Source of the DNA: a virus
IMG/VR virus record: IMGVR_UViG_3300023273_000760
Coordinates: 34,708-98,707 of that record
Strand: one strand, 5' to 3'
Length of the DNA stretch: 64,000 bases
Positions 15,541-51,155 of this stretch are shown one piece after another. The translations under genes and the position numbers were made by a program. Below the pieces are notes generated by a model. That model saw only the letters and a list, made by a program, of their open reading frames with translations. It was not told the DNA's origin and did no database searches. The first letter of the stretch is position 1, and each line of letters starts with the position of its first letter.

Positions 15541-15885
15541 ATGGACGAGAAGTTATCAAAAGCCCTTGAATTTGGCAATTATTCTGCTACACTAGAAAAT
15601 CAAAAGCGTATGTTACAAGAAAAATTTGTAACAGATACGATTTATTTCTGCGCAGGTGGACAATTTACTATTACTAAAGAACTTATTAATTATTGCCAAA
15701 CATTACTAGGTAGCGGACAAGAGTCGTTTATATTAATTGATGATAATAGTATTCCTATTGAAATACAAAGTATTGAAAAATTTAAAGAAGAAATTTTTGA
15801 CAAGTACTTTGTTGCTCTTAATGAATATCATACGTCTTATCAAAAATTAACAAAAAGTAGGTCCGTTGACGGATTAGTAGAATGA
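15541..15885 (+). CDS. Hypothetical protein
   Basis: 114 aa ORF, coupled to the next gene by ATGA overlap. Confidence 0.6.
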   Translation: MDEKLSKALEFGNYSATLENQKRMLQEKFVTDTIYFCAGGQFTITKELINYCQTLLGSGQESFILIDDNSIPIEIQSIEKFKEEIFDKYFVALNEYHTSYQKLTKSRSVDGLVE

Positions 15886-16721
15886 CAAATGGGATTCTTT
15901 TATTTGCATACAATAATGAACAAATAGATTACGTTGCTCAAGCGTGTTATCTAGCCAATCGTGTAAAACAGTACATGAACCTTCCTACTACTTTAGTTAC
16001 TGATGATAAAGCAAGGGTTGAAAAATATTATAATGGTAATGAAGTATTTGATAACATTATAGAAGTTTCATCTATTAGATATAATAAAAAACGCTATCAT
16101 GATGGAGCGTTGTCGTTCAAACTTCTTAACTTTAAGAATTTTAATAGAGATAATGCTTATAATGTTTCGCCATACGATCAAACACTAGTACTAGATACTG
16201 ACTATATTATTTCCAATGACTTATTACTAAGTTGTTTTAATAGTGTTAATGACTTAATGGTTTATTCAAAGAGTCTTGATATTTCGGGATGGAGAGAAGC
16301 AGAAGAATTTGATTTAATAAGTGAAACTAGTATAAAATTTTATTGGGCCACAGTTGTGTTTTTTAGAAAAACAAAATCTAATAAAGTGTTCTTTGATCTA
16401 ATAACACATATTAAAGAAAATTATGAACACTATCGAAACTTGTATCAACTTACTAACAGTGTTTATAGGAATGACTTTGCTTTTAGTATAGCAATACATA
16501 TTATGGCAGGACACTATGGATCTGGATTCGTAAAAGAATTACCAGGAAAGATGATTTATAGTACAGGTAAAGATATCTTAGAAAAAATTAAAGATGATGA
16601 ATTAACTTTATTAGTTGAAAAACAAAATAGATCGGGAGAGTATACCCTTTTAAAATCTAAAGGCTTAAACTTACACGTAATGAATAAGTTTAGTTTGAAT
16701 AGGAACATTTCTAATGCCTAA
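15882..16721 (+). CDS. GT-A fold glycosyltransferase-like protein
   Basis: SPYDQTLVLDTD DxD motif and an N-terminal GILLFA strand. Confidence 0.6.
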   Translation: MTNGILLFAYNNEQIDYVAQACYLANRVKQYMNLPTTLVTDDKARVEKYYNGNEVFDNIIEVSSIRYNKKRYHDGALSFKLLNFKNFNRDNAYNVSPYDQTLVLDTDYIISNDLLLSCFNSVNDLMVYSKSLDISGWREAEEFDLISETSIKFYWATVVFFRKTKSNKVFFDLITHIKENYEHYRNLYQLTNSVYRNDFAFSIAIHIMAGHYGSGFVKELPGKMIYSTGKDILEKIKDDELTLLVEKQNRSGEYTLLKSKGLNLHVMNKFSLNRNISNA

Positions 16722-17535
16722 CTTTACTTTTCTTGCACAAAATAATGAACAAGACAATTATGTACGTCAAGCAGAATTACTAGCAATGAGTATTAGAAAA
16801 ACTAATCCAGACAGTAAAATTTGCTTAATAACTAATGAAGACACTGAATGGATTAAAGAAGGACTGTTTGACGATATTGTACCTATTCCGTGGGAAGATA
16901 AAGCAGATGAGCACAAATGGAAAGTACAAAACAGATGGAAAATTTATCATGCTTGTCCATATGACGAAACTTTTGTATTAGATACAGACATGATAGTATG
17001 TCATAACTTAACACATTGGTGGAATTTAATGCAAAATTATGATGTATTTTATACAACTAATGTAACAGATTATAAACAGTGTAAACTTAATGTAACATAC
17101 TATAGAAAAATGTTCGAAGCAAACAACTTACCAAACATTTATGTCGCATTACATTATTTTAAAAAGTCAGAATTTGCAAAACAGTTTTATACTTGTTTAG
17201 AAGAAGTAATGAAAAACTGGGAATACTATTATGAAAGGTATGCACCTAAGAAAATGCAAAAGTTTTTAAGCGTTGACGTATGTACAGCAATAGCAATTAG
17301 AGTGTTAGGTGTTGAACATATAGTTACAAATACTAAACTACCATTTCCTACGTTTGTACATATGAAACCGTATGCACAAAGTTGGAAAATACAAACAACA
17401 AAATGGCAAGACCGTGTTAGTTGCTTTATTGATGATAAACAACAACTTAAAATAGGTGGACATTTGCAGGACACAGTGTTTCATTATACTGAAAAAGATT
17501 TTACGGAGAAATATTATGACAGATTCAATAATTAA
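16714..17535 (+). CDS. GT-A fold glycosyltransferase-like protein (paralogue of previous)
   Basis: CPYDETFVLDTD DxD motif; YVRQAELLAMSIR; FVHMK/FHY. Confidence 0.6.
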   Translation: MPNFTFLAQNNEQDNYVRQAELLAMSIRKTNPDSKICLITNEDTEWIKEGLFDDIVPIPWEDKADEHKWKVQNRWKIYHACPYDETFVLDTDMIVCHNLTHWWNLMQNYDVFYTTNVTDYKQCKLNVTYYRKMFEANNLPNIYVALHYFKKSEFAKQFYTCLEEVMKNWEYYYERYAPKKMQKFLSVDVCTAIAIRVLGVEHIVTNTKLPFPTFVHMKPYAQSWKIQTTKWQDRVSCFIDDKQQLKIGGHLQDTVFHYTEKDFTEKYYDRFNN

Positions 17536-18070
17536 TTTTCCAGTTAAAGTTCAGAAATTTAAAGAACATAGTGTTCTTAAAGAATTATTATTAACAGCAA
17601 TTAATGAACAAAAAGAAGTAGAACATTTAATCGGACCTAATAATGATATTACTCGTTGTGATTGGCAACCTGCAAGATTTAATACTAACCGACGTTGGGT
17701 AAAGGATATAAAAGATCCGTTAACTGAACATATTGCAAAGTGGGCAGAGTCGTTTGGATATGCAAATTTTAAAGTGCTTGAAATTTGGTTTCAACAATAT
17801 GCACAGAACAGTAAACACTCTTGGCACACACATGGCGGAAATTTTACGTGTGTGTATTATCTAGATTTGCCTAAAGATACTCCACGTACTCAGTGGATTA
17901 ATCCTACAACTCTAAATGAAGAAACTTTTTGTGTTGCAGAAGGTGATATTATTATATTTCCAAGTTGGTTAATACATAGAGCACCACAAAATGAATCAAA
18001 AAATATGAAAACAATTATTTCATGGAACATTGAAGTTGGGATATCTGACTTCTACGGAGAAGGTCAATGA
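17516..18070 (+). CDS. Fe(II)/2OG dioxygenase-like protein
   Basis: HTH...CVYY...EGDIIIFPSWLIH...IISWN; start at 17516 has a GGAG RBS. Confidence 0.75.
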   Translation: MTDSIINFPVKVQKFKEHSVLKELLLTAINEQKEVEHLIGPNNDITRCDWQPARFNTNRRWVKDIKDPLTEHIAKWAESFGYANFKVLEIWFQQYAQNSKHSWHTHGGNFTCVYYLDLPKDTPRTQWINPTTLNEETFCVAEGDIIIFPSWLIHRAPQNESKNMKTIISWNIEVGISDFYGEGQ

Positions 18071-18642
18071 CAATGTCTTGGAAAGAAGTTCCGTTAAAGC
18101 CATCACAAACTTGGCTTGATTTTGATTTAGATAGTGGTGTAATAAAAACTATCGGAGCAACACCGTTAAGTAAACATAGTATCGAAGTTGACTATGAGCA
18201 AGTTAAAGATTTAATTGAAGGTAAAGTATATTTTAAACACTTTTTAGTTCAATTTAATCCAACTAGCACAATGTATGAGTTGGTTAATAAGCACGACGAA
18301 AAGAAATACGAATATAACGTTAATTCTAGTTTATATAAAATACAAAAAACTAATAAAGCAGATATTATAATTTGTAAAAATTATAAAAAGAAACAATGGG
18401 AATTAAAGTTTGGTGATTTATTTGCAAAAACATTGCTCAAAAACAACGTTACATTACAAACAGTAAAGCATTTTAGTGTAGTAGAAAAGAATAACCCATT
18501 TGTACTATACAGAACATTAACATTCAATTTAGCGTCAAATAATTTAGTCTTGCAATTTAATGATAATGATGCTATAATAGAATTTGACATTTATACGAAT
18601 AAACTTTTTAACAGTTATGGGATACAAATTGAACAAGATTAA
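18067..18642 (+). CDS. Hypothetical protein
   Basis: 191 aa ORF, coupled overlaps on both sides. Confidence 0.6.
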   Translation: MTMSWKEVPLKPSQTWLDFDLDSGVIKTIGATPLSKHSIEVDYEQVKDLIEGKVYFKHFLVQFNPTSTMYELVNKHDEKKYEYNVNSSLYKIQKTNKADIIICKNYKKKQWELKFGDLFAKTLLKNNVTLQTVKHFSVVEKNNPFVLYRTLTFNLASNNLVLQFNDNDAIIEFDIYTNKLFNSYGIQIEQD

Positions 18643-19516
18643 GATACAAGATGTTGATATTATCTTTCTAAGTTATGATGAGCCTAATGCTGAAGAAAAT
18701 TGGGCAGACTTACAACGGAAGATACCTTGGGCAAAACGTGTACACGGAGTAGAAGGATCAGATGCGGCACACAAAGCCTGTGCAGATTTATCTGAAACAA
18801 AACATTTTGTAACTGTAGATGGTGACACTATTGTCGACCCTAAGTTTATGCAAGTTGAATTAGACTTAGATAAGTTAGGTGTAGACGATGACTATCAATT
18901 TAGTTGGTGTGGTAAAATTGATGTTAACGGACTTATGTACGGCAATGGAAGTTTAAAGATGTGGACAAAAGATTTTGTTAAAAATATGAAGACACATGAA
19001 AACACTGACGGATCAGATGAAACAAGTATTGAATTTTGTTACTTTGACAACTATTATCAATTAAATGAAAACTATAGTAAAAGTATTATTACAGCAACTC
19101 CACATCAAGCATGGAGAGCAGGATTCCGTGAAGGCGTTAAAATGAGTCTGGATAGGGGAAAGCCAACAGAAGATATTAATTCATTATGGTGGCAAAATAG
19201 ACACAGACTTTTTATTTGGCAAATGGTAGGTTGTGATGTTCCTAATGGTATCTGGGCGGTATATGGCGCACGACTTGGAACATATATGAATATGTGTACA
19301 GATTGGGATCATACACAGACAAGAGACTTTACTTACCTCAATGAGTTATGGAAAGAACACGAGACTGTTACAGTCGCAGAAGAATGTAAAGAACTAGGAA
19401 AGAAATTAATTAATGAATTAGAATTACCTATTGCCGTTGTTCCGTTTGATAAATTACAAAGTGAATTTTTTAAGACAGTATACATAAACGGCGATAGAGT
19501 AATTAGGCGTAAATGA
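18617..19516 (+). CDS. GT2-like glycosyltransferase
   Basis: DIIFLSYDE..AH..FVTVDGD (DxD)..AWRAGFRE; paralogue of 27915; exact start uncertain. Confidence 0.6.
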   Translation: MGYKLNKIKIQDVDIIFLSYDEPNAEENWADLQRKIPWAKRVHGVEGSDAAHKACADLSETKHFVTVDGDTIVDPKFMQVELDLDKLGVDDDYQFSWCGKIDVNGLMYGNGSLKMWTKDFVKNMKTHENTDGSDETSIEFCYFDNYYQLNENYSKSIITATPHQAWRAGFREGVKMSLDRGKPTEDINSLWWQNRHRLFIWQMVGCDVPNGIWAVYGARLGTYMNMCTDWDHTQTRDFTYLNELWKEHETVTVAEECKELGKKLINELELPIAVVPFDKLQSEFFKTVYINGDRVIRRK

Positions 19517-19758
19517 AAATAAGATATTATCATAATATTGATGGTTGGCGTTGGCTAGGATTTGTATTAGCAATGGTTAGTGCATTTTTATTAAGTGGCG
19601 GTAATCCTGCAATACAATGGTTAGGATGGGGCATCGCTTGCTTTAGTTGTAGCATATGGATTTACATGGGATGGAAAGATGGTGATACTCCTAGGGCATT
19701 AATGGAGTTAATGTATTTGCTTCTTGCTATAAGAGGCGTTTGGAATTGGATTCAATGA
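19513..19758 (+). CDS. Small membrane protein
   Basis: 81 aa with about three hydrophobic Trp-rich segments. Confidence 0.6.
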   Translation: MKIRYYHNIDGWRWLGFVLAMVSAFLLSGGNPAIQWLGWGIACFSCSIWIYMGWKDGDTPRALMELMYLLLAIRGVWNWIQ

Positions 19759-21122
19759 GTGAATTAGACAGAATTAAAACAGTAATGCCAGAAATTGATA
19801 AAATTTCTCCTTCATTCTGTTTGGCTAAATGGCATCATGTTACTATCTATTTGCAAACAGGCGAAACACACAGTTGTTATCATCCAGCACCTCACAAGAT
19901 TCCTTTAGAAGGATTAATAGATAATCCAAGCCAATTGCATAATACTCCGCAAAAGAAACTCGAACGTAGAGAAATGTTAGCAGGATTAAAACCTAGTGGT
20001 TGTCAATACTGTTGGAACATTGAATGTATGGGTAAAGATTACATTAGCGATAGACATATTAAAACAGCAAGTATTCATACACCAGAACGTATTGAAGAAA
20101 TTACAAGTAATCCTTGGGACTATAATATTAATCCCGAATATATTGAAGTAAACTTTAGTAATGAGTGTAATTTTAAATGCGGTTATTGTCATCCTAAGTT
20201 TAGTAGTAGATATTGGAACGAAATTAAACAACACGGACCATATAAAGATAGTACAGCACATCGTAACGATATTGACTGGATAGAATTATATGAAGAAGAA
20301 TCTAATCCTTATGTAGAAGCATGGTGGAAATGGTGGCCTGAAGTTAGTAAGACATTGAACATCTTACGTGTTACAGGTGGAGAGCCTTTGATGCATAAAA
20401 GTACTTGGAGGCTTTTTGAAGAATTAAAATCAAATCCAAAGCCGCATTTAAATATTGAACTTAACAGCAATATGGGTGTAAAGCCTGCACTAGTTAAAAA
20501 ATTAACACAAGTCGTAAAAGAACTTAGAGAAACTAATTGTATTGCAAGTTTTAAATTATATACAAGTATAGATACATGGAGTAACCGTGCAGAATATACA
20601 CGTACTGGATTAGATTTAAAAATTTGGGAAACAAATTTAGATTATTATCTATCCAACACACCCTGGCCTGTAACATTTATGATTACATTTAACATATTCT
20701 CTGTTACAAGTTTCAGTTCTTTGTTAGAAAAAATATTAGAATGGCGTAAAAAATATAATACAGATGAACAAACAAAATGGCAACGTATAAGGTTTGATAC
20801 GCCATACCTAACTGATCCTATTCAGTTTGATATAAACATACTTCCTAAAGATGAATTCATGCCTTATATGAAAAAGCACTTAGAGTTTATTGTTAATAAT
20901 TTAGATGACACAAACAGAACTAAATTTAGTAGTTTGGAATATGAAAGATTTAGGAGAGTAGTTGACTATATGGAAACAACAAACTATTCTGAGAAAAAAC
21001 TATTAAACGGAAGAAAAAACTTTCATACATGGTTTAGAGAATACGATAAAAGACGCAATACTAATCTTGTAGAAACGTTTCCTGAATTTAAAGAATTTTA
21101 CAATTTTTGTAAAACTTGCTAA
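19755..21122 (+). CDS. Radical SAM protein with N-terminal Cys-rich auxiliary domain
   Basis: CNFKCGYC and GGEP; N-terminal FCLAKW...SCYH...CQYC. Confidence 0.9.
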   Translation: MSELDRIKTVMPEIDKISPSFCLAKWHHVTIYLQTGETHSCYHPAPHKIPLEGLIDNPSQLHNTPQKKLERREMLAGLKPSGCQYCWNIECMGKDYISDRHIKTASIHTPERIEEITSNPWDYNINPEYIEVNFSNECNFKCGYCHPKFSSRYWNEIKQHGPYKDSTAHRNDIDWIELYEEESNPYVEAWWKWWPEVSKTLNILRVTGGEPLMHKSTWRLFEELKSNPKPHLNIELNSNMGVKPALVKKLTQVVKELRETNCIASFKLYTSIDTWSNRAEYTRTGLDLKIWETNLDYYLSNTPWPVTFMITFNIFSVTSFSSLLEKILEWRKKYNTDEQTKWQRIRFDTPYLTDPIQFDINILPKDEFMPYMKKHLEFIVNNLDDTNRTKFSSLEYERFRRVVDYMETTNYSEKKLLNGRKNFHTWFREYDKRRNTNLVETFPEFKEFYNFCKTC

Positions 21123-22233
21123 CTAATTTCTGATTGTGTATTAATACGTCTTCTATATCTTGTAAGTTACAATCATTATTAGCAATGTGTTCAATTAATT
21201 CAAAAATAGCAATTAACCTATCTGTAGGATTTTCAATACTGTCGTAGTCTTCACTCCACAAACTATCAAATGTTTTAAATCCAAGTTCTTTAATATATTT
21301 TAAAGTATGCGGCGGTCCAACCATAACAAACGGTCTACCATATAACATTGCATTAAATGTTTTTTCACTAAAGTTAGCAGTAGGTTGTGCAAAACGTGTT
21401 TCGTTAACAATAGCACACATACTATCTAAATAAAATGCTTCTAGTCCTCTACCTTGAGGAGCAAACACAGGCCATTGCTTCATGCTGGCATCAGTTGTTT
21501 TTGCATTTTTATAATCTAATACATATGGAATATTTTGATTTAATGTATCGATATTTTGTTTAATTATTGTTTCGTAATTAGTACCACTCCATTTGTCTAG
21601 TTCAATCCAAGTGCGGTCCATTAATAATTCATAGTTAGTTTTAAAGTTCCAACTTAAATAACAATCTTTGTCTACAAGAAATGCAGATAGTAAATGACGA
21701 TGTTTAGTATAACGCCAGTTTGGACAAATAAATTTTTTATTATAATTTAAATCAAGTGTAGTATTACCACCACAAAAGAAATCACGTAAAAATATATCCA
21801 TGCAAAATAAGTTTAATGTTGGATAATTTTTAGCATAATATTTTTGTATATTATAATCTCCTGTATATACATTGATATTTTTAATACTGTTCTTTTGTTG
21901 CCAATTAACAATACTATCTAATTCGTCTGCATAAAGATTATCAAATGTATTAAATTCACTATAGAAATGGTTGTTATGGATCGTATCTTTTATATATGGA
22001 CTAACAGGCTCGTACAAGTAGATATCAACACCCTTACTTAATTTTTTATATGTTTTAGGAGACAGTTCTAAACTGTCAAACTGTTTGATATGATTAGTAC
22101 CTGTGTAAACAAAAGTAGGACGAGTTGTATCTTTTAATAAAGATTCACGGAATAGTTCAGTTAACATTCCTTTATCTTTGTTGCGTATATTTTTCTGTGG
22201 AATATTTTTCCAGAATAAGTCCTGGACAAACAT
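21088..22233 (-). CDS. Glycosyltransferase-like protein (GT10/GT-B-like C-terminus)
   Basis: IVNET...FSEKTF..MLYGRPFVMVG...LGFKTF..E.YD motif. Confidence 0.5.
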   Translation of the reverse strand: MFVQDLFWKNIPQKNIRNKDKGMLTELFRESLLKDTTRPTFVYTGTNHIKQFDSLELSPKTYKKLSKGVDIYLYEPVSPYIKDTIHNNHFYSEFNTFDNLYADELDSIVNWQQKNSIKNINVYTGDYNIQKYYAKNYPTLNLFCMDIFLRDFFCGGNTTLDLNYNKKFICPNWRYTKHRHLLSAFLVDKDCYLSWNFKTNYELLMDRTWIELDKWSGTNYETIIKQNIDTLNQNIPYVLDYKNAKTTDASMKQWPVFAPQGRGLEAFYLDSMCAIVNETRFAQPTANFSEKTFNAMLYGRPFVMVGPPHTLKYIKELGFKTFDSLWSEDYDSIENPTDRLIAIFELIEHIANNDCNLQDIEDVLIHNQKLVSKFYKNCKIL

Positions 22234-22724
22234 TAGTAACTTCCTGTAATTTGTAAAGTGTATCTTGGATCTACGCCAATGTTACTTGCGGCGTGTGGAG
22301 CATCGGCATCCCATAAAACATATTCTCCTGCTTTATAGTTTACAACACCAATACCTTCTACTTCAAAGTAATGACCTGGTTTCCAATCTTCTAAAAATAC
22401 AATAGCACGTCTTACATTTTTTCGTTCTTGATTAAACACACGACAATATGTATTAAAATGATCAACGTGTGTAGGCATAATATCTAATGTATCCATTCTA
22501 TAAAACACAAATCCAGGATTATGTAAATTTAATAATGATGCAACTTTTTCTACCCATTCAGGCATTGGATTTTTACTGTCATACATTTTGCCTGTTGTAG
22601 TAGTATGTGTATATCCTTGTTCACGCCAAGCATCTGCTTCTTCACCTGTAATAGGTTGTCTAACGTAATTAAAATCTTTGAAATCATCATTCCAAAGTTT
22701 GCTAATAATCCCTCTATAAAACAT
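22233..22724 (-). CDS. Fe(II)/2OG-type double-stranded beta-helix dioxygenase
   Basis: HVD...HAASN...RYTLQITG facial-triad pattern. Confidence 0.65.
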   Translation of the reverse strand: MFYRGIISKLWNDDFKDFNYVRQPITGEEADAWREQGYTHTTTTGKMYDSKNPMPEWVEKVASLLNLHNPGFVFYRMDTLDIMPTHVDHFNTYCRVFNQERKNVRRAIVFLEDWKPGHYFEVEGIGVVNYKAGEYVLWDADAPHAASNIGVDPRYTLQITGSY

Positions 22725-24936: not shown

Positions 24937-24941
24937 ACACA

Positions 24942-24949
24942 TATTTATA
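24942..24949 (-). promoter_or_regulatory. T4 late promoter consensus TATAAATA, 5 nt before ATG
   Basis: Minus strand TATAAATAtgtgtATG. Confidence 0.65.
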
Positions 24950-24959
24950 TACGCAGATA

Positions 24960-41671: not shown

Positions 41672-41676
41672 AAGTA

Positions 41677-42999: not shown

Positions 43000-43005
43000 T
43001 AAATA
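42998..43005 (+). promoter_or_regulatory. Late-type box GATAAATA
   Basis: 10 nt upstream of ATG 43016. Confidence 0.45.
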
Positions 43006-43015
43006 TAGGTACAAC

Positions 43016-43795: not shown

Positions 43796-44487
43796 AAGAA
43801 CTAGAACAGTACTGGCAAGAAAACAACAAGGAATACGAATTTAAGTATCCAGAGCAGTTCGATCCTAAATGGATTGTAATGGAAAGTGGCTGGCCTTTTT
43901 TTAAATTAAGTGCATTAGACAATCAACCTTGGAAAGAGATGCACATTGAGGCAGAAGCGTTACTTGAATATTTTAAAGATCACAGAACTGACTATGGAGA
44001 AGGTTGGAAGAGTCTTACACTACACGGACTTAGTGAAGATACACAAACACTAAACAGTTATGGCGATCGTGCTGAAACTATCAAACAGTTGGACTGGACT
44101 TGGGTAGCAGAACAATGCCCTGTAACTAAAAAGTTTTTAACAGATGTGTGGCCTGCAGAGTTTTTAAATCGTGTGCGTTTTATGTTACTAGAGCCGGGTG
44201 GATATATACTTCCGCATCAAGATAGAGCCGATGAGGAAAAACGTTTAAGTGTTTGTAACATCAGTTTAAACAATCCAGAAGGTTGCGAGTTTGTAATGAA
44301 AAATCAAGGGCGTGTACCGTTTGAAGATAAAGGCAGTGCGTTCTTAATGGATATTTCAAATGTACACAGTGTATGGAATCGCAGTGATGAGCCTCGTATT
44401 CATATGATTATTCATTATGAACTAGGTAAACGTATTCGCGACTTTTTCTATGTGCTAAGACAAAGTTATTATACTAATAGAGGTTAA
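43792..44487 (+). CDS. Asp/Asn beta-hydroxylase-like Fe/2OG dioxygenase
   Basis: RVRFMLLEPGGYILPHQD..HSVWN...RIHMI. Confidence 0.8.
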   Translation: MKELEQYWQENNKEYEFKYPEQFDPKWIVMESGWPFFKLSALDNQPWKEMHIEAEALLEYFKDHRTDYGEGWKSLTLHGLSEDTQTLNSYGDRAETIKQLDWTWVAEQCPVTKKFLTDVWPAEFLNRVRFMLLEPGGYILPHQDRADEEKRLSVCNISLNNPEGCEFVMKNQGRVPFEDKGSAFLMDISNVHSVWNRSDEPRIHMIIHYELGKRIRDFFYVLRQSYYTNRG

Positions 44488-44488
44488 C

Positions 44489-45958
44489 GTGAAAGATTGG
44501 AATAGTATTACCGTAGATAGATATTGGGAACAAATTAAAGTACCCAATGATGTTGCTATTGGCATATTAGATATCTCACGCGATATTGATAGTCGTACTG
44601 TTGCTAAACGCAGTTTTGATATGACTTACTTTTATGTTAATCGTATGATTAAAATGGGTATGTGTACTTTTGTTGGGTTTGAAAAACGTGTAGAAACTAT
44701 ATTAGAAAATGCTCTAGCAAAAAACAAAAAGTATTGTATGGTTGCTTGTCAAGGTTTATTGTTATATAGAGGTCCTAGTTTAATTACACAGAGCCTACAT
44801 TATGCAGACAACAATCCAAACTTTTTTGTTGTAGGGCATATTATGGACAAAACAAAACAGCACTATCTAACTAAAGGTGCTTATCCAGGTTTACACAGAC
44901 AATATCTATTTGTTAATTTAGAAACTTGGAAACAGTTAGGTAAACCAGCCTTTGATGAAATGGGAATATTCAAAGATAGAAAACCTGTACTACAAAATTA
45001 TCAATTAAGCAATGAAACTGTACACAGTGATTATACGCCTGATTGGATACAAGGTACGCAAGGTGAAACAGAATATCAAATAACTTCTGATGGAAGTAAC
45101 TGGATTGATATTGCTTGTCGTAACGGAATACGTATTGATAACTTAGATAATGATATGCGTGACTGTAAAGTATTTCTATATCCTTATAGCGATACAAAAG
45201 AGTTAGAGGAAGTATGGTATGATAAAGACATTAACAAAATTGATAAACTTTCTAACCAATCGCAAAAAGCCTGGCTTAGAAAACTACAGTACCAAGAGTA
45301 CATTGAAAAAGACAGAGTGTATGCGTTTAACACAGAAACACTATCTGCTGAAGGAGTAAGAACAAATGGAAAAGTTATAGATCATTTGTTTACTGCCGCG
45401 GCAGGTTTTAAACCTCTTGCTATATTAAATGCTAACGGGTTTCACAATAGTACAACAGTACATTATTTTGATTGGTGCAAATCAAGTTTAAACTATAAAA
45501 AGCATTTATTAGAAACTTGGGACGGTTATGATTTAGATAAATGGTTATTAGAACACGACTTAGATTATAACTTTAGTTCTACATATAGAGGAAACTATAA
45601 ACAGTTTTGGGAACAAGAATTAAAAGACTTTGGTGGTAGTTTAGCATTTCAAAGACTCTGGGAAAGATACAAAAAATTAAAACATGAATTTCATGTTATT
45701 GATATTGTAAACGAAAGCGATAAACTGTTTGATGAAATTAACAAAACACACGGTACAAAGGTATTATGGACTACTAACATTTGGAGTAGTGAAATGTTAC
45801 ACTGGAATGTTGAGCCAGAAGTAATAGAACAAAAGTGGTTAGAGTTTGAAAAGCGTGTACCAGATGATTTAGTTTTATATGGACATGATTACGTAGCAGT
45901 TGATATGAACACAAGATTAAGGAGTGGTGTAAAACTAACACACTTGCATTATGATTAA
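44489..45958 (+). CDS. Hypothetical two-domain protein (possibly GT-like N-terminus, Rossmann/methyltransferase-like C-terminus)
   Basis: 489 aa ORF; weak motifs only (VGHIMD, LHRQYLFVNL, TAAAGFK..VHYFD). Confidence 0.4.
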   Translation: MKDWNSITVDRYWEQIKVPNDVAIGILDISRDIDSRTVAKRSFDMTYFYVNRMIKMGMCTFVGFEKRVETILENALAKNKKYCMVACQGLLLYRGPSLITQSLHYADNNPNFFVVGHIMDKTKQHYLTKGAYPGLHRQYLFVNLETWKQLGKPAFDEMGIFKDRKPVLQNYQLSNETVHSDYTPDWIQGTQGETEYQITSDGSNWIDIACRNGIRIDNLDNDMRDCKVFLYPYSDTKELEEVWYDKDINKIDKLSNQSQKAWLRKLQYQEYIEKDRVYAFNTETLSAEGVRTNGKVIDHLFTAAAGFKPLAILNANGFHNSTTVHYFDWCKSSLNYKKHLLETWDGYDLDKWLLEHDLDYNFSSTYRGNYKQFWEQELKDFGGSLAFQRLWERYKKLKHEFHVIDIVNESDKLFDEINKTHGTKVLWTTNIWSSEMLHWNVEPEVIEQKWLEFEKRVPDDLVLYGHDYVAVDMNTRLRSGVKLTHLHYD

Positions 45959-47027
45959 AACAGTTACATATTCTAAACAAGGTATACTAGACTATGTTAA
46001 AAATATTGACATAGCAAATACACCTGACTATTTTATAAGTGTGTCAACAAGTCACGGACCAGAAAGTTTTCGTTTATTTGAAGGTGCGTATCATAATGTT
46101 ATTAGTTTGTTTTTTGATGATGTAGAAGTAGATTGTTGGAAAGACATAGAAGATGGCAGACGTGTTTGGTGTAATGCTATGACAGAACAGCAAGCCACAG
46201 AACTGTTAAGTTTTATTAACAGTATTCCAAATGACACAACAGTACATATTAATTGTAGTGAAGGACAGTCCCGCTCACCCGCTATTGCACAGTTTATTAA
46301 TGAACATAGAAACAATGTAAAAGAAAATAATCCTCTAGTTAATCAACACGTATTAAAACTATTACAGGAAGCAACAGGGTATAAACGTTATATTGAAAAA
46401 CATGACGAAGTAAAGTTAGGTTGGAAAATTAAAAAATGGTTCCCAGTTGATATTAATAAAATACAAAATTGGTATTATAGTTTAGAAGAAAGATACAGTG
46501 ATTGGAAATTTATTGTAGGAGAAAATCATCATATATGGAAATTTCCTATTACAGACCCAGAAGGCAAAACAGGACATCGCTTAATGGATGATACAGCATA
46601 TTATACACTTTGTTGGAATAGTGATGAGCCAGGCCCTAAGCCATTTGAACAAGGGTGTGCTAAAGACGAATATAAAGATAATGATGATGACAATCTAAAT
46701 CCTCGTATGTGCTTTGACGGTTATGCTTTAGACATTGTACAAGGTTTACCTGTACGTAGTAAAAAATGGTTAGTAACTATTCACACTCCGGGTACTAAAC
46801 TAATTACACATCAAGACGCACCAGACAAGATTAGAGTACATATTCCTATACACACAAATAATAATAGTAATTGGATAATTGACGGTGAAGAATATCATAT
46901 GGAACCCGGCTGGGCATATCTTGTTAATACAACAGTTCCACACAGTGTAGAGAACAAAGGGTCTACTGATAGAATACATTTATATGGTAAAGTATGGACA
47001 GAAGATGTAAGGAAGTTAAACTTATGA
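45951..47027 (+). CDS. Fusion: Cys-based (PTP/DSP-like) phosphatase + Asp/Asn beta-hydroxylase-like dioxygenase
   Basis: N-terminal LFFDD and VHINCSEGQSRS (CX5R); C-terminal HQD..RVHIP..PHSVEN..RIH. Confidence 0.75.
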   Translation: MIKTVTYSKQGILDYVKNIDIANTPDYFISVSTSHGPESFRLFEGAYHNVISLFFDDVEVDCWKDIEDGRRVWCNAMTEQQATELLSFINSIPNDTTVHINCSEGQSRSPAIAQFINEHRNNVKENNPLVNQHVLKLLQEATGYKRYIEKHDEVKLGWKIKKWFPVDINKIQNWYYSLEERYSDWKFIVGENHHIWKFPITDPEGKTGHRLMDDTAYYTLCWNSDEPGPKPFEQGCAKDEYKDNDDDNLNPRMCFDGYALDIVQGLPVRSKKWLVTIHTPGTKLITHQDAPDKIRVHIPIHTNNNSNWIIDGEEYHMEPGWAYLVNTTVPHSVENKGSTDRIHLYGKVWTEDVRKLNL

Positions 47028-47638
47028 AAGTTGTAATTACTGGAGGTAGAGATAGCGGAATTAAACCTGGTGTACATACTATGAACAGTTGGTTACATGA
47101 TTACTTTAGTGAAGGTAATGAAGTAATACAATTGAGTAGAGAAACAGGATATGATTTTGATAAAGACTACGACAAGTGTGTTGAGATAGCAAGAACAGCA
47201 GATATATTTGTCAATAGTGCTTGTGTTAACGATTATCAAATTCGCTTCTTAAATGACGTTTACGGTTATGTTCCCTACTTATTAACTATTGGAAGTATTG
47301 CAGGTGAATTCTTAGAAGTTCCTCAAGGATATGATAATCATCCTAACTATGTTGAAGTTAAGAATAAATTAAAGCAACGTTGTAAATGGATCCAACTAGA
47401 ACAAATGGATAATCAAACAACTAAATTATTACATTTGAATATTACAGAAACACGTGATCCTAAGTATAATATTATAGGATTAGAAAAAACAGATTTAAAT
47501 AAGGTACTAGACTTTTGGTTTGAGAATCCTATTATGTCAAATATTGATATGAGATTCTTTACAGAAAGTTATCATAAAGAATATAAACGCAATAAAGTAC
47601 AAAGGATTATAGATCACTACAATGATAAGAGAAGTTAA
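47024..47638 (+). CDS. Short-chain dehydrogenase/reductase-like protein
   Basis: MKVVITGG, DIFVNSA, IGS and YVEVK (YxxxK). Confidence 0.65.
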   Translation: MKVVITGGRDSGIKPGVHTMNSWLHDYFSEGNEVIQLSRETGYDFDKDYDKCVEIARTADIFVNSACVNDYQIRFLNDVYGYVPYLLTIGSIAGEFLEVPQGYDNHPNYVEVKNKLKQRCKWIQLEQMDNQTTKLLHLNITETRDPKYNIIGLEKTDLNKVLDFWFENPIMSNIDMRFFTESYHKEYKRNKVQRIIDHYNDKRS

Positions 47639-48212
47639 AACACTTAACACAACAGTTGACATTAATGAATTGCAAGACTACTATAAGCAATTAGTAAATA
47701 GTCACCAAGACTTGTGTTGGAGATATAAAGATAATGTTAGTGAAGGCGTTGGCGGACACGTACTTGACAATGCTTATGGTTGGGCATTACAAAGTAATCT
47801 TGATGATTTAACATTACCTTGTCCTCCGTACAATGTTACTGAAGAACGCAAAATGCATCCTTATAAAGATACTAAATTAATGTTTGGCATTGCTCGTAAA
47901 TTACAAGATGCGTTTCCATTTGCACATCAGTTTAGTGTAGTTGTACACCCTCCAGGAACTTTTATTAACTTTCATAGCGATAGCGATAATTATTTAAAAG
48001 TACATATTCCTATTGAAACTAATAGCAAAGCATATTTTCAATTTCAACCAATGCGTAGATTTGTTTTGCCAGCAGACGGAAGTATGATTCTAGTAAATAC
48101 TAATATCAAACACGGTACATACAACGAAGGTGATACAGATAGAGTACACTTATTTTTTAAGATACCTATTGATAAAGAGAATGAAGTAGTAGGAATGGAA
48201 GGTAAGATATGA
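47622..48212 (+). CDS. Asp/Asn beta-hydroxylase-like Fe/2OG dioxygenase
   Basis: HSD..KVHIPI..KHGTYN..RVHL. Confidence 0.75.
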   Translation: MIREVKTLNTTVDINELQDYYKQLVNSHQDLCWRYKDNVSEGVGGHVLDNAYGWALQSNLDDLTLPCPPYNVTEERKMHPYKDTKLMFGIARKLQDAFPFAHQFSVVVHPPGTFINFHSDSDNYLKVHIPIETNSKAYFQFQPMRRFVLPADGSMILVNTNIKHGTYNEGDTDRVHLFFKIPIDKENEVVGMEGKI

Positions 48213-48916
48213 GAGTAATACAAAATTACGATCCTAAAGATATTACAATGGATTTATTGTATAATGACGACTCGTGGGGTGCTATTGAATTAAATGTCAA
48301 ACTAGATGTTTATGAATTGCAATCTTATTATAATACTATACAACAAGAACACAACTATCAATATTTTGACTTTCAAAACTTTCCTGAGCGGTTAACTATT
48401 GAAGTTAGTAAGCAGTATATGGAATTAGGTTACTGTGGATACTATTGCGGACCAATTAGCGGATATACTCTTGCTTGGCCTAAAGAAAGATACGAACCAC
48501 TGCCGCCACCTAGTCAAGCAAATGTAGATATGTTTCCTGAAACACTCGATCCAGAGTTTTATGAAAAGTGTAACGTGTTACCTCGTTTTAGATTTGGCTA
48601 TATGAATACACTAATTGATATGTTAGGTGAAGACAGTTTTAAGCAGTGCATTATTACAGAACACGGACCTAGTGCAACTATTCAAACACATAAAGATTCA
48701 AATGCTAAGAAGTTACACATACCACTAAGAACAAATTCACAAGCGGTGTTTACCTTTGGTGAAAACAGAGAATTAAAATTTAATATGCGTGTAGGTAAAG
48801 TATACATTCTAAACACCAGTGCTTTTCACGGTACTGAAAATTTTGGTGATACTCCTAGAGCACATTTTATTACTCGTGTTGACGAAACAAAAATACAGGA
48901 TATAATTGCTTTATGA
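48209..48916 (+). CDS. Asp/Asn beta-hydroxylase-like Fe/2OG dioxygenase
   Basis: HKD..KLHIPL..GKVYILN..FHGTEN..RAH. Confidence 0.75.
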   Translation: MRVIQNYDPKDITMDLLYNDDSWGAIELNVKLDVYELQSYYNTIQQEHNYQYFDFQNFPERLTIEVSKQYMELGYCGYYCGPISGYTLAWPKERYEPLPPPSQANVDMFPETLDPEFYEKCNVLPRFRFGYMNTLIDMLGEDSFKQCIITEHGPSATIQTHKDSNAKKLHIPLRTNSQAVFTFGENRELKFNMRVGKVYILNTSAFHGTENFGDTPRAHFITRVDETKIQDIIAL

Positions 48917-50013
48917 ATGTAACTATTGTAGGCGGCGGAACAGCAGGTTGGATGACAGCCGCATATCTTTCTAAAAAAACTGATTGGAATATTACAGTTA
49001 TTCAAAGTCAAGATATACCTATTATAGGTGTAGGCGAAAGCACACTTCCAAGTATGTATGACTTTATTCAAGAGTGTGGTTTAACAGAACAAGATTTATT
49101 TGATAACTGTGATGCTGTCCGTAAGTACACAATAAAACATAAAAACTGGCACGGCGAAAGTTGGTTCCATCACTTTTGTTTTAATGAAGCAGAACACGAT
49201 GAACAAATGCGTTGGATGGAAAACTATGAGTTACCAGATAAAAAATGGCGCCATGCTTATCACATAGATGCAAATAAACTTGGTATTATGTTGCGTGACA
49301 AAGTAGCATTACTAAATGGTGTTAAATTAGAAACACGTACACTAGAAACTATTGACGATTTACAAGCAGATTTAATTATTAATTGTACAGGGTTTAATAA
49401 ACTATTTCCTAAAAAAGAATATGTAAAAACACGTCTTAAAAACAACTGTGCAGTAGTAGCACCTAGTTACGATAAAGAATTAAAATATTACACAGAAACA
49501 ACTGCTATGAGTAACGGGTGGATGTGGAATATTTACTTACAAAATCGTATTGGTAATGGATATGTCTTTAGTACAGAACATCAAACAGTTGAAGATGCTA
49601 AACGTGAATTTATTGAAACGTGTCCTTATACTCTTGAACTAGATAAAATGCGAGTAATACATTGGGAAAGCAAATACTGTTTAACTCCGTATCAAGATAA
49701 TATTTTAAGTATTGGATTAAGTGCCGGATTTATAGAGCCTTTAGAAGCACAAGCAATTTGGTTAATACAATATCAAATCGAAATGCTAGTAAAATTATAC
49801 GGCAAACAAAAAGTTTACAATAGACAATGGATTAAAGTTGTAAAGCATATTGAAGATTTTCTTGCATTGCACTACGAAGCAACAAGTAAAGACACACCCT
49901 ATTGGCAAAATCAAGTAAAAGAAATTAAGATTAAAAAGAAACCGTTTACTATCTTTGATGAATATAGTTTTAGGTGTTTAGCCAACGGTTACGCTCTTCC
50001 TCATACTTCTTAA
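48913..50013 (+). CDS. Flavin-dependent halogenase (tryptophan halogenase family)
   Basis: GGGTAG, IGVGEST, Lys in DAVRKYTI, GWMWNI (WxWxI), GFIEPLEA. Confidence 0.85.
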   Translation: MNVTIVGGGTAGWMTAAYLSKKTDWNITVIQSQDIPIIGVGESTLPSMYDFIQECGLTEQDLFDNCDAVRKYTIKHKNWHGESWFHHFCFNEAEHDEQMRWMENYELPDKKWRHAYHIDANKLGIMLRDKVALLNGVKLETRTLETIDDLQADLIINCTGFNKLFPKKEYVKTRLKNNCAVVAPSYDKELKYYTETTAMSNGWMWNIYLQNRIGNGYVFSTEHQTVEDAKREFIETCPYTLELDKMRVIHWESKYCLTPYQDNILSIGLSAGFIEPLEAQAIWLIQYQIEMLVKLYGKQKVYNRQWIKVVKHIEDFLALHYEATSKDTPYWQNQVKEIKIKKKPFTIFDEYSFRCLANGYALPHTS

Positions 50014-50518
50014 CATCAATTCTCCATATTCTTTGGGGAACATAAAACAGCATAGCACTTTGCTCTAATTTCCAAATGCCAGTCTTTGCTAACATAGGCA
50101 TCATAGTATCGTTCATGCGTTTACTTTTACCACCGTCGTTGTTGATGTTAGTTGTAATGTAAAGTTCGGCATCTGGGTTTTGTCTAGTTGCCCAAGTAAT
50201 TTGTAATGGCAACAAATGACTTAAATGTATTCCTGTTTTAAATATATTACGTCCAACACCTAGTGTGTAGCCTGGCAACTGTGCGCCTCTAAATAAAAGT
50301 CTATAAGCATTAGGAGATACTTCTGGTAATTTGTGTGCACCAGCAATACTAACAATTTTATCTCCATCAAATGCCGCACACCAAAAAGGACACCAGTCCC
50401 ATTTCATTTTTTCTAATGATGTGTTATTACTGAAGTCTTGAGAATTACAAAATTCTTCTACTGCGGGTTTGTCATTATTAGTTAATGCTCTAAACTTTAG
50501 TTTTCCAAGTTTGTCCAT
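49970..50518 (-). CDS. Putative GNAT-like protein
   Basis: FWCAAFDGDKIVSIAGA and RLLFRGAQLPGY strands resemble a GNAT core; weak. Confidence 0.4.
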   Translation of the reverse strand: MDKLGKLKFRALTNNDKPAVEEFCNSQDFSNNTSLEKMKWDWCPFWCAAFDGDKIVSIAGAHKLPEVSPNAYRLLFRGAQLPGYTLGVGRNIFKTGIHLSHLLPLQITWATRQNPDAELYITTNINNDGGKSKRMNDTMMPMLAKTGIWKLEQSAMLFYVPQRIWRIDVKKYEEERNRWLNT

Positions 50519-51155
50519 TTGTTTCTTTTGCTCTCTTAACAAATCTTACAGGGTTCATTTCAAACAGATCTCCTGTTGCTTTTCCGTTTATATAACACTC
50601 ATGTAAACTACTGAAACTAATTGGATAAAACATCACATGATCATCTTTTATGGTATTTAAATCAAATGATGTACTGTTATAACCAATCATTACCGGTGGA
50701 GGAAACTCAGTCATACCATACCAATTTGCTACAGTTTGGACACCACGTTCTCTAAACGCATCTATAAAACTTTGTTCTATTTTGGAACTACCTGTAACCA
50801 TATAACGTACACTGCTCATATCTAACTGTTTAAATGCTTTAGTGTTACTTAATAGTTCTAAATGCCGCGGTATTAACGCTATAACCGTCGGTTTAACGCG
50901 GTTAAACAGTTCAGGGTAGGTGTAGGTACTAAAGTTGCTAGAAACGTGCTGTGCGCCGCTTAAAAACGCAGGAAGAGCGGTGATTGTGTAGTGGGCAATA
51001 GTGTTTGCAGGGAACACATCGAGTACTATATCGTCTTTGGTAAGTCCAATTTCTTTTATACTTTTGGTTGCACATTCTTTTATATAATCCCAAGAATGTT
51101 TAACCTCTTTTGGTTCGTCGGTACTACCAGATGTGAATAGTGTAAGAGTGCTCAT
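50490..51155 (-). CDS. Truncated ANL/AMP-binding (acyl-CoA synthetase-like) core
   Basis: FTSGSTDEPK (A3), WYGMTE (A5), TGD (A7). Confidence 0.75.
   Translation of the reverse strand: MSTLTLFTSGSTDEPKEVKHSWDYIKECATKSIKEIGLTKDDIVLDVFPANTIAHYTITALPAFLSGAQHVSSNFSTYTYPELFNRVKPTVIALIPRHLELLSNTKAFKQLDMSSVRYMVTGSSKIEQSFIDAFRERGVQTVANWYGMTEFPPPVMIGYNSTSFDLNTIKDDHVMFYPISFSSLHECYINGKATGDLFEMNPVRFVKRAKETNGQTWKTKV

Follow-up and report, generated by a model that had tools for sequence, protein, structure and literature searches.

A tail-fibre-linked island of radical SAM and predicted sugar-tailoring enzymes in an uncultured marine jumbo phage

Published readings of the sugar genes in large cyanophages (P-SSM2, S-SCSM1 and S-SCSM2R) favour modification of the cell surface (PMC12801897). 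The authors who described S-SCSM2R call three of the genes considered below "antibiotic synthesis genes", and Iyer et al. proposed secondary metabolites for the dioxygenase/halogenase array of Syn9. In addition, beta-hydroxylase operons have been predicted to encode tail-collar proteins as presumed substrates (PMC2938197). In the papers that we found, no product is described for an island of the type reported here.

We analysed a window of 64,000 nucleotides (positions 34,708 to 98,707 of IMG/VR record IMGVR_UViG_3300023273_000760); all coordinates below are positions in this window. A preliminary description, made from the sequence alone, had claimed that positions 15541-51155 form an island of about 40 contiguous genes, mostly modifying enzymes, between tail-fibre genes, with a T4-late-like box ahead of most cassettes. 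This observation was confirmed. The region holds 42 ORFs in eight co-directional cassettes and is 99.8% coding. Its GC content is 32.8%, as compared with 35.8% for the rest of the contig. However, the cyanophage framing implicit in that description is wrong: the phage is not a cyanomyovirus but a T4-like jumbo phage, and its nearest cultured relatives are jumbo myoviruses (PA5oct, Atu_ph07 and RsoM2USA).

Next, we verified the enzyme families. Exactly ten radical SAM genes in three families (A, B and C) are present, as had been claimed, at 19740, 28579, 30158, 31107, 33087, 33972(-), 37829(-), 39724, 40676(-) and 41704. All ten possess CxxxCxxC. Nine pass the Pfam PF04055 cut-off and 40676 scores 29.2 against 29.5 bits. 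About eight cupin/2OG oxygenases were found, again as claimed: 17456, 43016, 43792, the C-terminal half of 45951, 47622 and 48209 are supported by Pfam, 32434 is a BLAST paralogue of 43792, and 22233 has HxD...H and a homologue in S-SCSM2R that is annotated as a 2OG oxygenase. Of the six glycosyltransferase-like genes, 18584 and 27915 have a GT-A / nucleotide-diphospho-sugar transferase fold by structure prediction and comparison (AF2 pLDDT 92; Foldseek probability 1.0; VIA Z 9.3-11.4), 15882 and 16714 match GT8 glycogenin weakly, and 21088 and 24972 rest only on a GT10-like NE...EK motif. The kinase (37387), CX5R phosphatase (N-terminus of 45951), SDR (46994), SGNH (23675 and 27106) and methyltransferase (29550) assignments are supported by motifs only.

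The left flank consists of three paralogous tail-fibre genes at 8819-14499(+) (8819-10888, 10888-12987 and 13021-14499), of which the first has a tail-collar domain (Pfam Collar, E 4e-13). Their N-termini are 32-38% identical, and NATAAATA boxes lie at 8174 and 12989. They are followed by a gene for a 310-aa Thr/Ser-rich fibre-associated protein (14513-15445, +), a candidate acceptor. This gene is conserved in four related contigs (G001-G004), and the C-terminal part of its product matches RsoM2USA_355, which precedes a smaller version of the island in that phage. A terminator hairpin with a T-run and then a TGTAAATA box (15492-15533, +) lie ahead of the first island gene; a GTAAATA box is conserved here in G001-G003.

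The island starts with a core gene (15541-15885, +) for a 114-aa protein without Pfam or PHROG match, which is conserved in G001-G004 and in RsoM2USA_354 (34%). Two paralogous core proteins with a DTD motif (15882-16721 and 16714-17535, +) match glycogenin in a profile search against PDB (E 0.007), and RsoM2USA_353 and _352 are 34-36% identical to them. The variable gene 17456-18070(+) encodes a 2OG-Fe(II) oxygenase (Pfam 2OG-FeII_Oxy_5, E 1.8e-9). The next gene (18067-18642, +), for a 191-aa protein, is conserved in G001-G003 and gave no family match. The core GT-A-fold protein at 18584-19516(+) is a paralogue of 27915 (BLAST E 5e-20) and RsoM2USA_350 is 43% identical to it. The variable gene at 19513-19758(+) encodes an 81-aa protein, the only clearly hydrophobic small protein, although 38860 and two others have single TM-like segments. 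The core gene 19740-21122(+) encodes a radical SAM enzyme of family A (N-terminal twitch, NF033640; 306 bits against an NCBIfam cut-off of 170), to which RsoM2USA_349 is 38% identical.

On the minus strand, an amidinotransferase cassette (21088-24949) lies under an exact TATAAATA box. It encodes a DegT-family protein (24352), which is only 196 aa but possesses the SFQYKK lysine motif, an SGNH-like protein (23675), an amidinotransferase (22714) that matches StrB1 (PDB 1bwd) at E 1.7e-109, the cupin/2OG protein (22233) and the GT10-like protein (21088). Homologues of four of these five genes (not 23675) lie in two Bdellovibrio loci (L100 and L137), and three of the genes are found in the cyanophage S-SCSM2R. 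In S-SCSM2R, however, the cassette sits among small, mostly unnamed genes rather than next to fibres. Therefore, fibre linkage is not universal for every sub-block. The GT10-like paralogue of 21088 at 24972-25919(+) gave no PDB match. The following core gene (25916-27109, +) encodes a UDP-glucose/GDP-mannose dehydrogenase family protein (Pfam E 7e-17 and 9e-16), which is 44-55% identical to proteins of Bdellovibrionota loci. The SGNH-like / DUF6473-like protein at 27106-27927(+) shares the FGCSYTEG motif with 23675.

A five-gene core module lies at 27915-32447(+): GT-A (27915), radical SAM B (28579), class I methyltransferase-like (29550), radical SAM C with SPASM (30158) and radical SAM A (31107). 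At least three of these five genes lie within 2-13 kb (mostly 2-6 kb) in 16 bacterial loci. The module is followed by the cupin hydroxylase-like 32434-33090(+) (HRD motif; BLAST E 1e-4 to 43792) and a core radical SAM gene of family B at 33087-33992(+) (Pfam E 1.4e-10). The minus-strand cassette at 33972-39834 contains 38860, which has no assigned function, radical SAM A (37829), an APH-like mini-kinase (37387), two repeat proteins with a propeller-like G-IY-PPYG motif (36183 and 35054) and radical SAM A (33972); 35054, 36183 and 38860 are variable. Further radical SAM genes are the variable family B gene with its AATAAATA box (39710-40695, +), the core family C gene with SPASM under an exact TATAAATA box (40676-41684, -) and the variable family A gene (41704-42999, +; NCBIfam 221 bits). 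The radical SAM enzymes resemble solved enzymes only in the core domain, and these include peptide-modifying enzymes (TvgB/8vpo, SkfB and anSME) as well as nucleotide-acting ones (viperin, MoaA and BlsE).

In the second half of the island, a hydroxylase array (42998-48916, +) lies behind a GATAAATA box. It encodes AspH-like cupins (43016, 43792 (core), the C-terminal half of 45951, 47622 and 48209; Pfam Asp_Arg_Hydrox, E 5e-4 to 7e-15), the Rossmann-like 46994 and an orphan core protein (44489), which has more than 170 unnamed relatives. A 366-aa flavin-dependent Trp-halogenase family protein (48913-50013, +; Pfam E 8e-72) is 27-31% identical to cyanophage halogenases and is absent from G001-G005. 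At the right end (49970-51155, -), a 221-aa AMP-binding protein (50490-51155; Pfam E 5e-22), which starts at the TSGST-EPK motif, and a 190-aa protein (49970-50542) are co-directional with and directly downstream of an Mtd_N-type tail-fibre gene, and the 43-nt gap has no hairpin. The same order is found in a more distant related contig, G005. The Mtd_N fibre gene (51199-52494, -; Pfam E 1.2e-10) forms the right flank, with a CATAAATA box at 52535 (51199-52542 in total) that is conserved in G001, G002 and G005.

We then examined the promoter motifs. Exact TATAAATA is rare (3 matches against 12.8 expected). The relaxed NATAAATA occurs 16 times in the 98.7 kb contig, and 13 of these lie within 36 nt upstream of a same-strand ORF start. 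These include baseplate and fibre genes and four island cassettes, and a 7/8 box precedes 15541; in total, five of the eight island cassettes are headed by such boxes, and relatives conserve them. A gp55-like gene is suggested only by reading of an N-terminal sequence. Perfect sigma-70 consensus sites occur only beyond 55 kb, although an 11/12 sigma-70-like site (48879-48906) precedes the halogenase gene. Late expression is probable, but the timing rests on a promoter motif only. The box lies 0-11 nt from some start codons, which would imply leaderless or mis-called starts.

To test whether the island stays linked to tail genes, we compared related contigs. Gene order and position between the fibre genes are kept in G001, G002 and G004, and in G003 as far as that contig reaches, because it ends inside the island. 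In G005, the right-hand junction with the Mtd_N fibre is kept. Eighteen core genes are shared by G001, G002 and G004. Among cultured phages, only the Ralstonia jumbo phage RsoM2USA has block 1, as a fibre-linked mini-version (ORF355 to ORF347) placed directly after a fibre-like gene in the structural module, and the adjacent ORF356 is an MS-confirmed virion protein. The same enzyme families also form islands in Bdellovibrionota, including a cultured isolate, together with at least five GT2 genes, epimerases, sugar dehydrogenases, YdjC and a polysaccharide lyase. These bacterial islands are not next to fibre-like genes; therefore, the chemistry is not intrinsically tied to virions. The Bdellovibrionota islands, the mini-version in RsoM2USA and the amidinotransferase cassette in S-SCSM2R are new findings of this work.

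Several other explanations were considered. One unlikely possibility is that the island makes a modified sugar that is added to host LPS, capsule or surface proteins during infection, which could block adsorption of other phages or of progeny to debris, or change grazer recognition. The published readings of cyanophage sugar genes favour such an idea. The Bdellovibrio island contains GT2 proteins with C-terminal TM-like segments, a layout that resembles polyprenol-phosphate sugar synthases, and G005 carries what look, from N-terminal sequence only, like KdsA-/KdsB-type genes near its island. However, the phage island has no initiating phosphoglycosyl transferase, flippase, polymerase, ligase or any polytopic membrane protein, and late-type boxes and the position inside the fibre module fit poorly with superinfection exclusion. 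It is equally unlikely that the island is a biosynthetic gene cluster for an aminoglycoside-like guanidino pseudo-oligosaccharide, or another tailored metabolite, that is released at lysis and might act against competitors or other phages. The enzyme mix (the StrB1-like and DegT proteins, kinase-like and phosphatase-like motifs, glycosyltransferases, radical SAM enzymes and a halogenase) resembles streptomycin-type clusters, Bdellovibrionota arrays include carbamoyltransferases, and the proposals of the S-SCSM2R authors and of Iyer et al. point in this direction. In contrast, Pfam scans of the island ORFs found no sugar-phosphate cyclase or inositol-phosphate synthase, the island has no NRPS, PKS or carrier protein and no resistance or export gene, and the conserved placement between fibre genes and the structural-type boxes are unexplained by this reading.

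Less likely still, the radical SAM enzymes may act on fibre or other virion polypeptides themselves, like SPASM/twitch peptide maturases (for example epimerisation, C-C cross-links or methylation), and the sugar genes would be a separate function. The SPASM/twitch architecture, the best PDB matches (TvgB (8vpo), SkfB and anSME) and the tail-collar prediction (PMC2938197) are consistent with this idea, and Asp/Asn beta-hydroxylases are protein-directed in characterised cases. However, there is no precursor peptide, for which the 99.8% coding island leaves no room, and no RRE-type domain was detected by Pfam. Fibres have 0-1 Cys, which excludes thioether links. Moreover, the radical SAM trio travels with a GT-A and a methyltransferase, and in Bdellovibrionota with many GT2 genes. 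Similarly doubtful is the idea that the region is a hyperplastic dump of independently useful auxiliary genes that happens to lie between fibre genes. More than half of the ORFs are variable among relatives, the halogenase is unique to this contig, the GC content is lower, and cyanomyoviruses are known to have such regions (PMC12801897). Nevertheless, 18 genes are kept in order across relatives that have diverged to 40-90% identity, each radical SAM paralogue has its own orthologue in relatives, multi-gene modules recur together in Bdellovibrionota and RsoM2USA, translational coupling is tight and promoter boxes are shared. Addition of sugars or guanidino groups to phage DNA bases is very unlikely: although GTP cyclohydrolase I and a QueE-like gene lie 11 kb away, the radical SAM enzymes show weak core similarity to viperin, MoaA and QueE, and Campylobacter phages, which carry modified guanine DNA, have distant amidinotransferase homologues, Pfam scans, which left about half of the island ORFs unmatched, returned no base hydroxymethylase, DpdA/TGT, nucleotide kinase or other DNA-metabolism family, and the island has structural-type boxes rather than the sigma-70 consensus sites of the early region.

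The preliminary description interpreted the island as a late-phase pathway that builds and tailors a glycan or protein modification on virion proteins (or remodels the host surface), rather than scattered auxiliary genes; this interpretation is partly supported. A single conserved unit and a coherent sugar-tailoring pathway are well supported, the latter by the StrB1-like, DegT, dehydrogenase and GT-A assignments and by the Bdellovibrionota islands. In contrast, there is no direct evidence for any glycan or modification on virions, and virion proteins as the acceptor remain an inference from position, promoter type and the lack of membrane or export genes (no polytopic membrane protein, flippase, polymerase or lipid-carrier transferase was found in the island). 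What our analysis shows is the enzyme families, the synteny, the promoter motif and the cellular counterparts, whereas the order of steps, the radical SAM substrates, the late timing and the acceptor are inferred. We tentatively assign a probability of about 0.45 to the following proposal. Soluble enzymes would take nucleotide-sugars from the host pool, and these would be oxidised by the UDP-sugar dehydrogenase-like 25916, transaminated by 24352 and amidinated by 22714, which would give amino or guanidino sugars. The sugars would be transferred by GT-A-type proteins (18584 and 27915, and possibly 15882 and 16714) and then tailored by the methyltransferase-like protein and the three radical SAM families, which could carry out C-H chemistry such as oxidation, epimerisation or deoxygenation. 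The second half of the island would add side-chain chemistry by AspH-like hydroxylases, in this phage a halogenase, and a small adenylating enzyme. The most likely acceptors are virion surface proteins, above all the fibres encoded on either side, and the decoration would alter adsorption, stability or recognition.

The window corresponds to bases 34708-98707 of a 98.7 kb linear IMG/VR contig, which CheckV rates as 28% complete. Genes upstream of the window look like the T4 major capsid, portal, late sigma factor (gp55) and baseplate genes, as judged solely by reading their N-terminal sequences. The window itself begins with a giant open frame of more than 2,725 aa (1-8178, plus strand); the 2,329-aa ORF from the ATG at 1189 contains no cysteine. 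This frame is conserved in relatives and, by size and position alone, may correspond to the >288 kDa virion protein ORF361 of Ralstonia phage RsoM2USA. Megablast of the island against 50,697 phage records found no match. Initially, the phage was taken for a cyanomyovirus. However, its MoxR-type ATPase and its fibre N-terminus point to the jumbo myoviruses PA5oct, Atu_ph07, Phosso, SCTP-2, XaC1 and RsoM2USA, and thus the phage is not a cyanomyovirus. The ATPase is 51% identical to that of PA5oct-type jumbo phages and is paired with a VWA/DUF2201 metallopeptidase-like gene (54089-56614, minus strand). Relatives of one island protein lie on environmental contigs of up to 356 kb, which fits a genome of about 350 kb. 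An attempt to assign a host gave no result, because no tRNAs were found and the GC content differs from that of the Bdellovibrionota loci described below.

Between 15541 and 51155, we counted 42 ORFs in eight co-directional cassettes (ORFs are named here by their window coordinate). Most of them overlap by a few bases. The stretch is 99.8% coding, the only gaps being 95 and 43 nt, and its GC content is 32.8% as compared with 35.8% elsewhere. The tailoring-enzyme island between tail-fibre genes that was claimed in the preliminary description is real. All ten radical SAM genes claimed there were confirmed by Pfam and by the CxxxCxxC motif. They fall into three old paralogue families. Family A has five genes, in which a four-Cys twitch-like module precedes the SAM barrel. 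All five score 221-422 bits against NCBIfam NF033640 (N_Twi_rSAM), for which the curated cut-off is 170 bits, and four N-terminal Cys are invariant, along with CxxxCxxC and GGEP. Family B has three genes of about 300 aa. Family C has two genes with a C-terminal SPASM domain. The Pfam SPASM domain was found in 30158, 31107, 33972 and 40676.

About eight cupin/2OG oxygenases are supported: six have Pfam hits, and two rest on paralogy or on motifs plus an annotated homologue. ORF 22714 is a full-length relative of the streptomycin enzyme StrB1 (PDB 1bwd, E 1.7e-109). ORF 24352 is a conserved short DegT-type protein (E 9e-19), which keeps the SFQYKK lysine motif, and 25916 belongs to the UDP-glucose/GDP-mannose dehydrogenase family. 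ORF 27915 and its paralogue 18584 have a predicted GT-A / nucleotide-diphospho-sugar transferase fold with a DGD motif. The AF2 model has pLDDT 92. The Foldseek hits, among which is A64R of chlorovirus PBCV-1, are overwhelmingly GT-A-type sugar enzymes at probability 0.96-1.0, although the TM-scores are low (0.3-0.46). VIA gave Z 9.3-11.4 over residues 1-137. ORFs 15882 and 16714 match glycogenin (GT8) only weakly (E 0.007). A halogenase (E 8e-72) and a 221-aa AMP-binding protein close the island. The kinase, phosphatase, SDR, SGNH, methyltransferase and GT10-like labels rest on motifs only. No island ORF is a polytopic membrane protein; there are only an 81-aa hydrophobic ORF and isolated single TM-like segments. 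None of the ORFs with a Pfam match belongs to a DNA-metabolism family, although about half of the ORFs matched nothing.

Several further searches gave little. PHROGs returned almost nothing for 20 unannotated ORFs, and profile searches against PDB sequences returned nothing for 27915/18584, 29550, 44489, 21088/24972 and 35054/36183. The radical SAM profiles matched solved enzymes only in the core domain, and therefore no substrate could be assigned from them. ORF 44489 (44489-45958, plus strand) represents an orphan 489-aa family, which always sits next to the AspH-like hydroxylase in phages and in Bdellovibrionota. A large homologue search for this protein returned only unnamed proteins without Pfam domains, in more than 170 clusters, and its AlphaFold model was too poor to search (pLDDT 56).

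Next, we tested whether the island is one unit. A scan of IMG/VR with radical SAM 31107 returned 43 loci, and their neighbours are the same island genes. In three long contigs that span it (G001, 156 kb; G002; G004), the island lies in the same place: to the left are three fibre paralogues plus the homologue of 14513, the gene that precedes the island, and to the right are the Mtd_N fibre and the VWA/MoxR pair. A fourth contig, G003, shows the same left junction and gene order but ends inside the island. The island length is 30-33 kb in G001, G002 and G004. Eighteen ORFs are kept at 40% identity or more in these three contigs, whereas the rest vary and the halogenase is unique to the present contig. 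Each radical SAM paralogue has its own orthologue in the relatives at 42-97% identity, while the paralogues are only 21-29% identical to each other. Therefore, the family expansion predates these phages. A more distant lineage, G005, keeps the radical SAM/hydroxylase half and the junction of the AMP-binding gene, 49970 and the Mtd_N fibre.

The preliminary description stated that most cassettes start with a T4-late-like box. Exact TATAAATA is rare, with 3 matches against 12.8 expected, and only the relaxed NATAAATA/TAAATA box supports this claim. NATAAATA occurs 16 times in the contig, and 13 of these lie 0-36 nt upstream of a same-strand ORF start, where by our estimate chance would place about 0.3. 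These boxes head baseplate and fibre genes and the island cassettes at 24942 (minus strand), 39724 (plus strand), 41671 (minus strand) and 43016 (plus strand). A TGTAAATA box precedes 15541. The boxes are conserved at the same positions in G001-G004. The divergent genes 38860 (minus strand) and 39724 (plus strand) probably start back to back at CATATG (39721-39726), and each promoter would then lie inside the other gene. Perfect sigma-70 consensus promoters occur only in the region beyond 55 kb: perfect (12/12) or near-perfect sites lie directly upstream of genes in this early-type region, at 63710-63682, 60775-60747 and 55431-55403 (all minus strand). The only strong site of this type inside the island is an 11/12 sigma-70-like site (48879-48906, plus strand), which ends 7 nt before the halogenase start codon. 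The AMP-binding gene follows the Mtd_N fibre gene on the same strand, with a 43-nt gap and no hairpin. Late timing is therefore a reasonable inference from the promoter motif, not a result.

Cellular counterparts of the island were then sought. A scan of 185,579 species genomes with the family A alignment gave 344 relatives, and most of the best 80 (about 70) are from Bdellovibrionota, at 30-51% identity. NF033640 is absent from 14 model genomes. In contrast, it has 7-20 copies in each of five genomes searched, four Bdellovibrionota and one Parcubacteria MAG, often in 13-30 kb arrays mixed with the two other radical SAM families (loci L072, L116, L148-L151 and others). These loci also hold homologues of 29550, 27915/18584, 25916, the short DegT, 21088, the amidinotransferase (45%), 43792 and 44489. 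At least three genes of the module consisting of radical SAM 28579, 30158 and 31107, GT-A 27915 and methyltransferase-like 29550 cluster within 2-13 kb, mostly 2-6 kb, in 16 bacterial loci, and the full radical SAM trio is present in 13 of them. In the isolate Bdellovibrio sp. HCB2-146, a ~37 kb island (G006 C1:1858-1895 kb) interleaves these genes with at least five GT2 genes, two sugar dehydrogenases, epimerases and a polysaccharide lyase. A related MAG locus adds YdjC and a GT2. A Pfam tally of 85 genes around the Bdellovibrionota arrays showed no constant partner: the flanks are housekeeping genes at different chromosomal sites. These islands are the strongest evidence that the radical SAM half belongs to glycan chemistry. 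In addition, a locus in a MAG labelled Rickettsiales (L077, MED657) has 34% GC, about 13 radical SAM genes among 19 co-directional ORFs and a 27915 homologue at 62% identity. This locus is possibly a phage contig binned into a bacterial MAG.

Among cultured phages, only RsoM2USA, a soil jumbo phage, has block 1 of the island. Its ORF355 to ORF347 (locus L153:2772-10376) run in the order fibre-like, 15541-like, two GT8-like, one unmatched ORF, GT-A, radical SAM A, GT-A and methyltransferase-like, at 34-45% identity. This mini-island directly follows the fibre-like gene and lies in the structural module, next to the MS-confirmed virion protein ORF356 (PMC8504454). All of these genes are annotated as hypothetical. 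Synechococcus phage S-SCSM2R (ORF302-310, locus L152:7004-13757; PMC12801897) has homologues of the short DegT (54%), 22233 (29%) and the amidinotransferase (64%), set among genes annotated as radical SAM and glycosyltransferases. There, the cassette lies among small, mostly unnamed genes and has been published as 'antibiotic synthesis' and 'cell wall' genes; the authors call three of the genes 'antibiotic synthesis genes' and say that the reason for them is unclear. Their virion preparation contained a different amidinotransferase and a 2OG oxygenase. Both phage cassettes are far smaller than the island (about 8-10 genes).

The interpretation offered in the preliminary description, a late pathway that builds and tailors a decoration on virion proteins, is supported only in part. 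We consider it likely that the island encodes a coherent sugar-building and sugar-tailoring pathway. The full reading, that the product decorates virion proteins, is more tentative, and we place its probability at about 0.45. Oxidation of a nucleotide-sugar, transamination, amidination, transfer by GT-A proteins, hydroxylation by AspH-like cupins and halogenation each have support at the level of the enzyme family. In contrast, the order of the steps, the action of the radical SAM enzymes on sugar C-H bonds, the late expression, the acceptor and the presence of a glycan on any virion protein are inferred. No modification has been observed, the Bdellovibrionota islands are not fibre-linked, and the radical SAM enzymes resemble peptide-modifying and nucleotide-modifying enzymes about equally, and only in the core. 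Virion acceptors are nevertheless suggested by the conserved position inside the fibre module in two very distant phage lineages, by the promoter boxes shared with structural genes and by one block that is operon-like with a fibre gene. Moreover, there is no lipid-carrier or export machinery and no room for a precursor peptide, and tail-collar proteins have been predicted as substrates of beta-hydroxylase operons (Iyer, Abhiman, de Souza and Aravind 2010, PMC2938197).

The island works most like virus-encoded virion glycosylation systems, but its size and radical SAM content go far beyond them. Such systems include the capsid glycosyltransferases of chlorovirus PBCV-1, the fibril glycan clusters of mimivirus and the capsid/tail glycosylation of mycobacteriophages. 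There as here, the virus carries its own soluble GT-A enzymes (predicted here) and sugar-modifying enzymes, the genes sit with structural genes and no host membrane export pathway is needed. However, those systems have a few to about a dozen genes and no radical SAM enzymes, whereas the present island has 42 genes with ten radical SAM enzymes, an amidinotransferase, hydroxylases and a halogenase, and no glycan has been observed. The hydroxylase/halogenase end resembles the Syn9-type cyanophage arrays (PMC2938197), in which several distantly related cupin/2OG hydroxylases lie in tandem with tryptophan halogenases in a T4-like phage, likewise with no known product. In the island, five AspH-like domains at 22-31% mutual identity and the flavin Trp-halogenase lie at 43016-50013. 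The Syn9-type array is found in cyanomyoviruses, lacks the radical SAM and sugar half and was read as secondary-metabolite synthesis, whereas here the hydroxylases belong to the Asp/Asn beta-hydroxylase family and lie next to a fibre gene. The amidinotransferase cassette resembles streptomycin-type aminocyclitol/aminosugar tailoring (StrB1 amidinotransferase, StsC/DegT aminotransferases, BtrN-type twitch radical SAM dehydrogenase) in its logic of oxidation, transamination and amidination, and kinase-like and phosphatase-like motifs are present. However, no cyclitol-forming enzyme, resistance gene or exporter was found, and the radical SAM enzymes are not BtrN relatives (E 0.006, core only). 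Nishimura et al. (2017, PMC5332604) noted the marine T4-like environmental viral genome TARA_ERS488813_N000010, which has an exceptional number of radical SAM genes (12) and possibly the same kind of island. It was discussed only as Fe-S cluster demand, and no synteny, fibre linkage or function was proposed. Literature searches on an N-terminal twitch radical SAM family, on Bdellovibrio radical SAM clusters and on radical SAM genes in marine jumbo phages found no paper that describes the island, its fibre linkage, its Bdellovibrionota counterparts or a product.

Among the alternatives, remodelling of the host surface and synthesis of a free aminoglycoside-like metabolite survive best, although both are unlikely. 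Against a surface polysaccharide locus of the Wzx/Wzy or ABC type, the island has no initiating phosphoglycosyl transferase, flippase, polymerase or exporter. A streptomycin-type cluster would account for the amidinotransferase and the DegT-type aminotransferase. However, no sugar-phosphate cyclase or inositol-phosphate synthase family was found by Pfam in any of the 42 ORFs at E <= 0.01, although orphan ORFs cannot be excluded. Direct radical chemistry on proteins is less likely still: the SPASM or twitch domains expected of RiPP maturases are present, but the island leaves no free small ORF for a precursor peptide, and the Pfam scans found no protease or ABC transporter family. It is equally doubtful that the region is merely an incoherent hyperplastic one. 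DNA modification is the weakest alternative. No DNA-metabolism family was returned for those island ORFs that matched any Pfam family, about half having matched none. GTP cyclohydrolase I (62982-63512; E 1.4e-42) lies next to a radical SAM gene with a QueE-like N-terminus; the pair (61886-63638, minus strand) probably represents a 7-deazaguanine DNA modification pathway and is outside the island.

A more speculative possibility, which we regard as less likely than not, is that the three radical SAM families (one with the twitch domain at the N-terminus), together with a GT-A protein and a methyltransferase, form an undescribed class of radical-based glycan-tailoring machinery, which is shared by Bdellovibrionota and jumbo phages. 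In the phage, this machinery would build a chemically unprecedented decoration on tail fibres: guanidinylated, radical-modified, hydroxylated and, in some phages, halogenated.

The counterparts identified here make the question testable in three cultured systems, RsoM2USA, S-SCSM2R and Bdellovibrio sp. HCB2-146. If the proposed reading is true, it would assign a first biological context, glycan tailoring, to three uncharacterised radical SAM families, including NF033640. It would also mean that a widespread marine jumbo-phage lineage spends roughly a tenth of its genome on chemically decorating its own particles; relatives of one island protein occur in more than 170 protein clusters. Virion decoration of that kind would bear on adsorption, host range, particle stability and recognition by grazers or defences.
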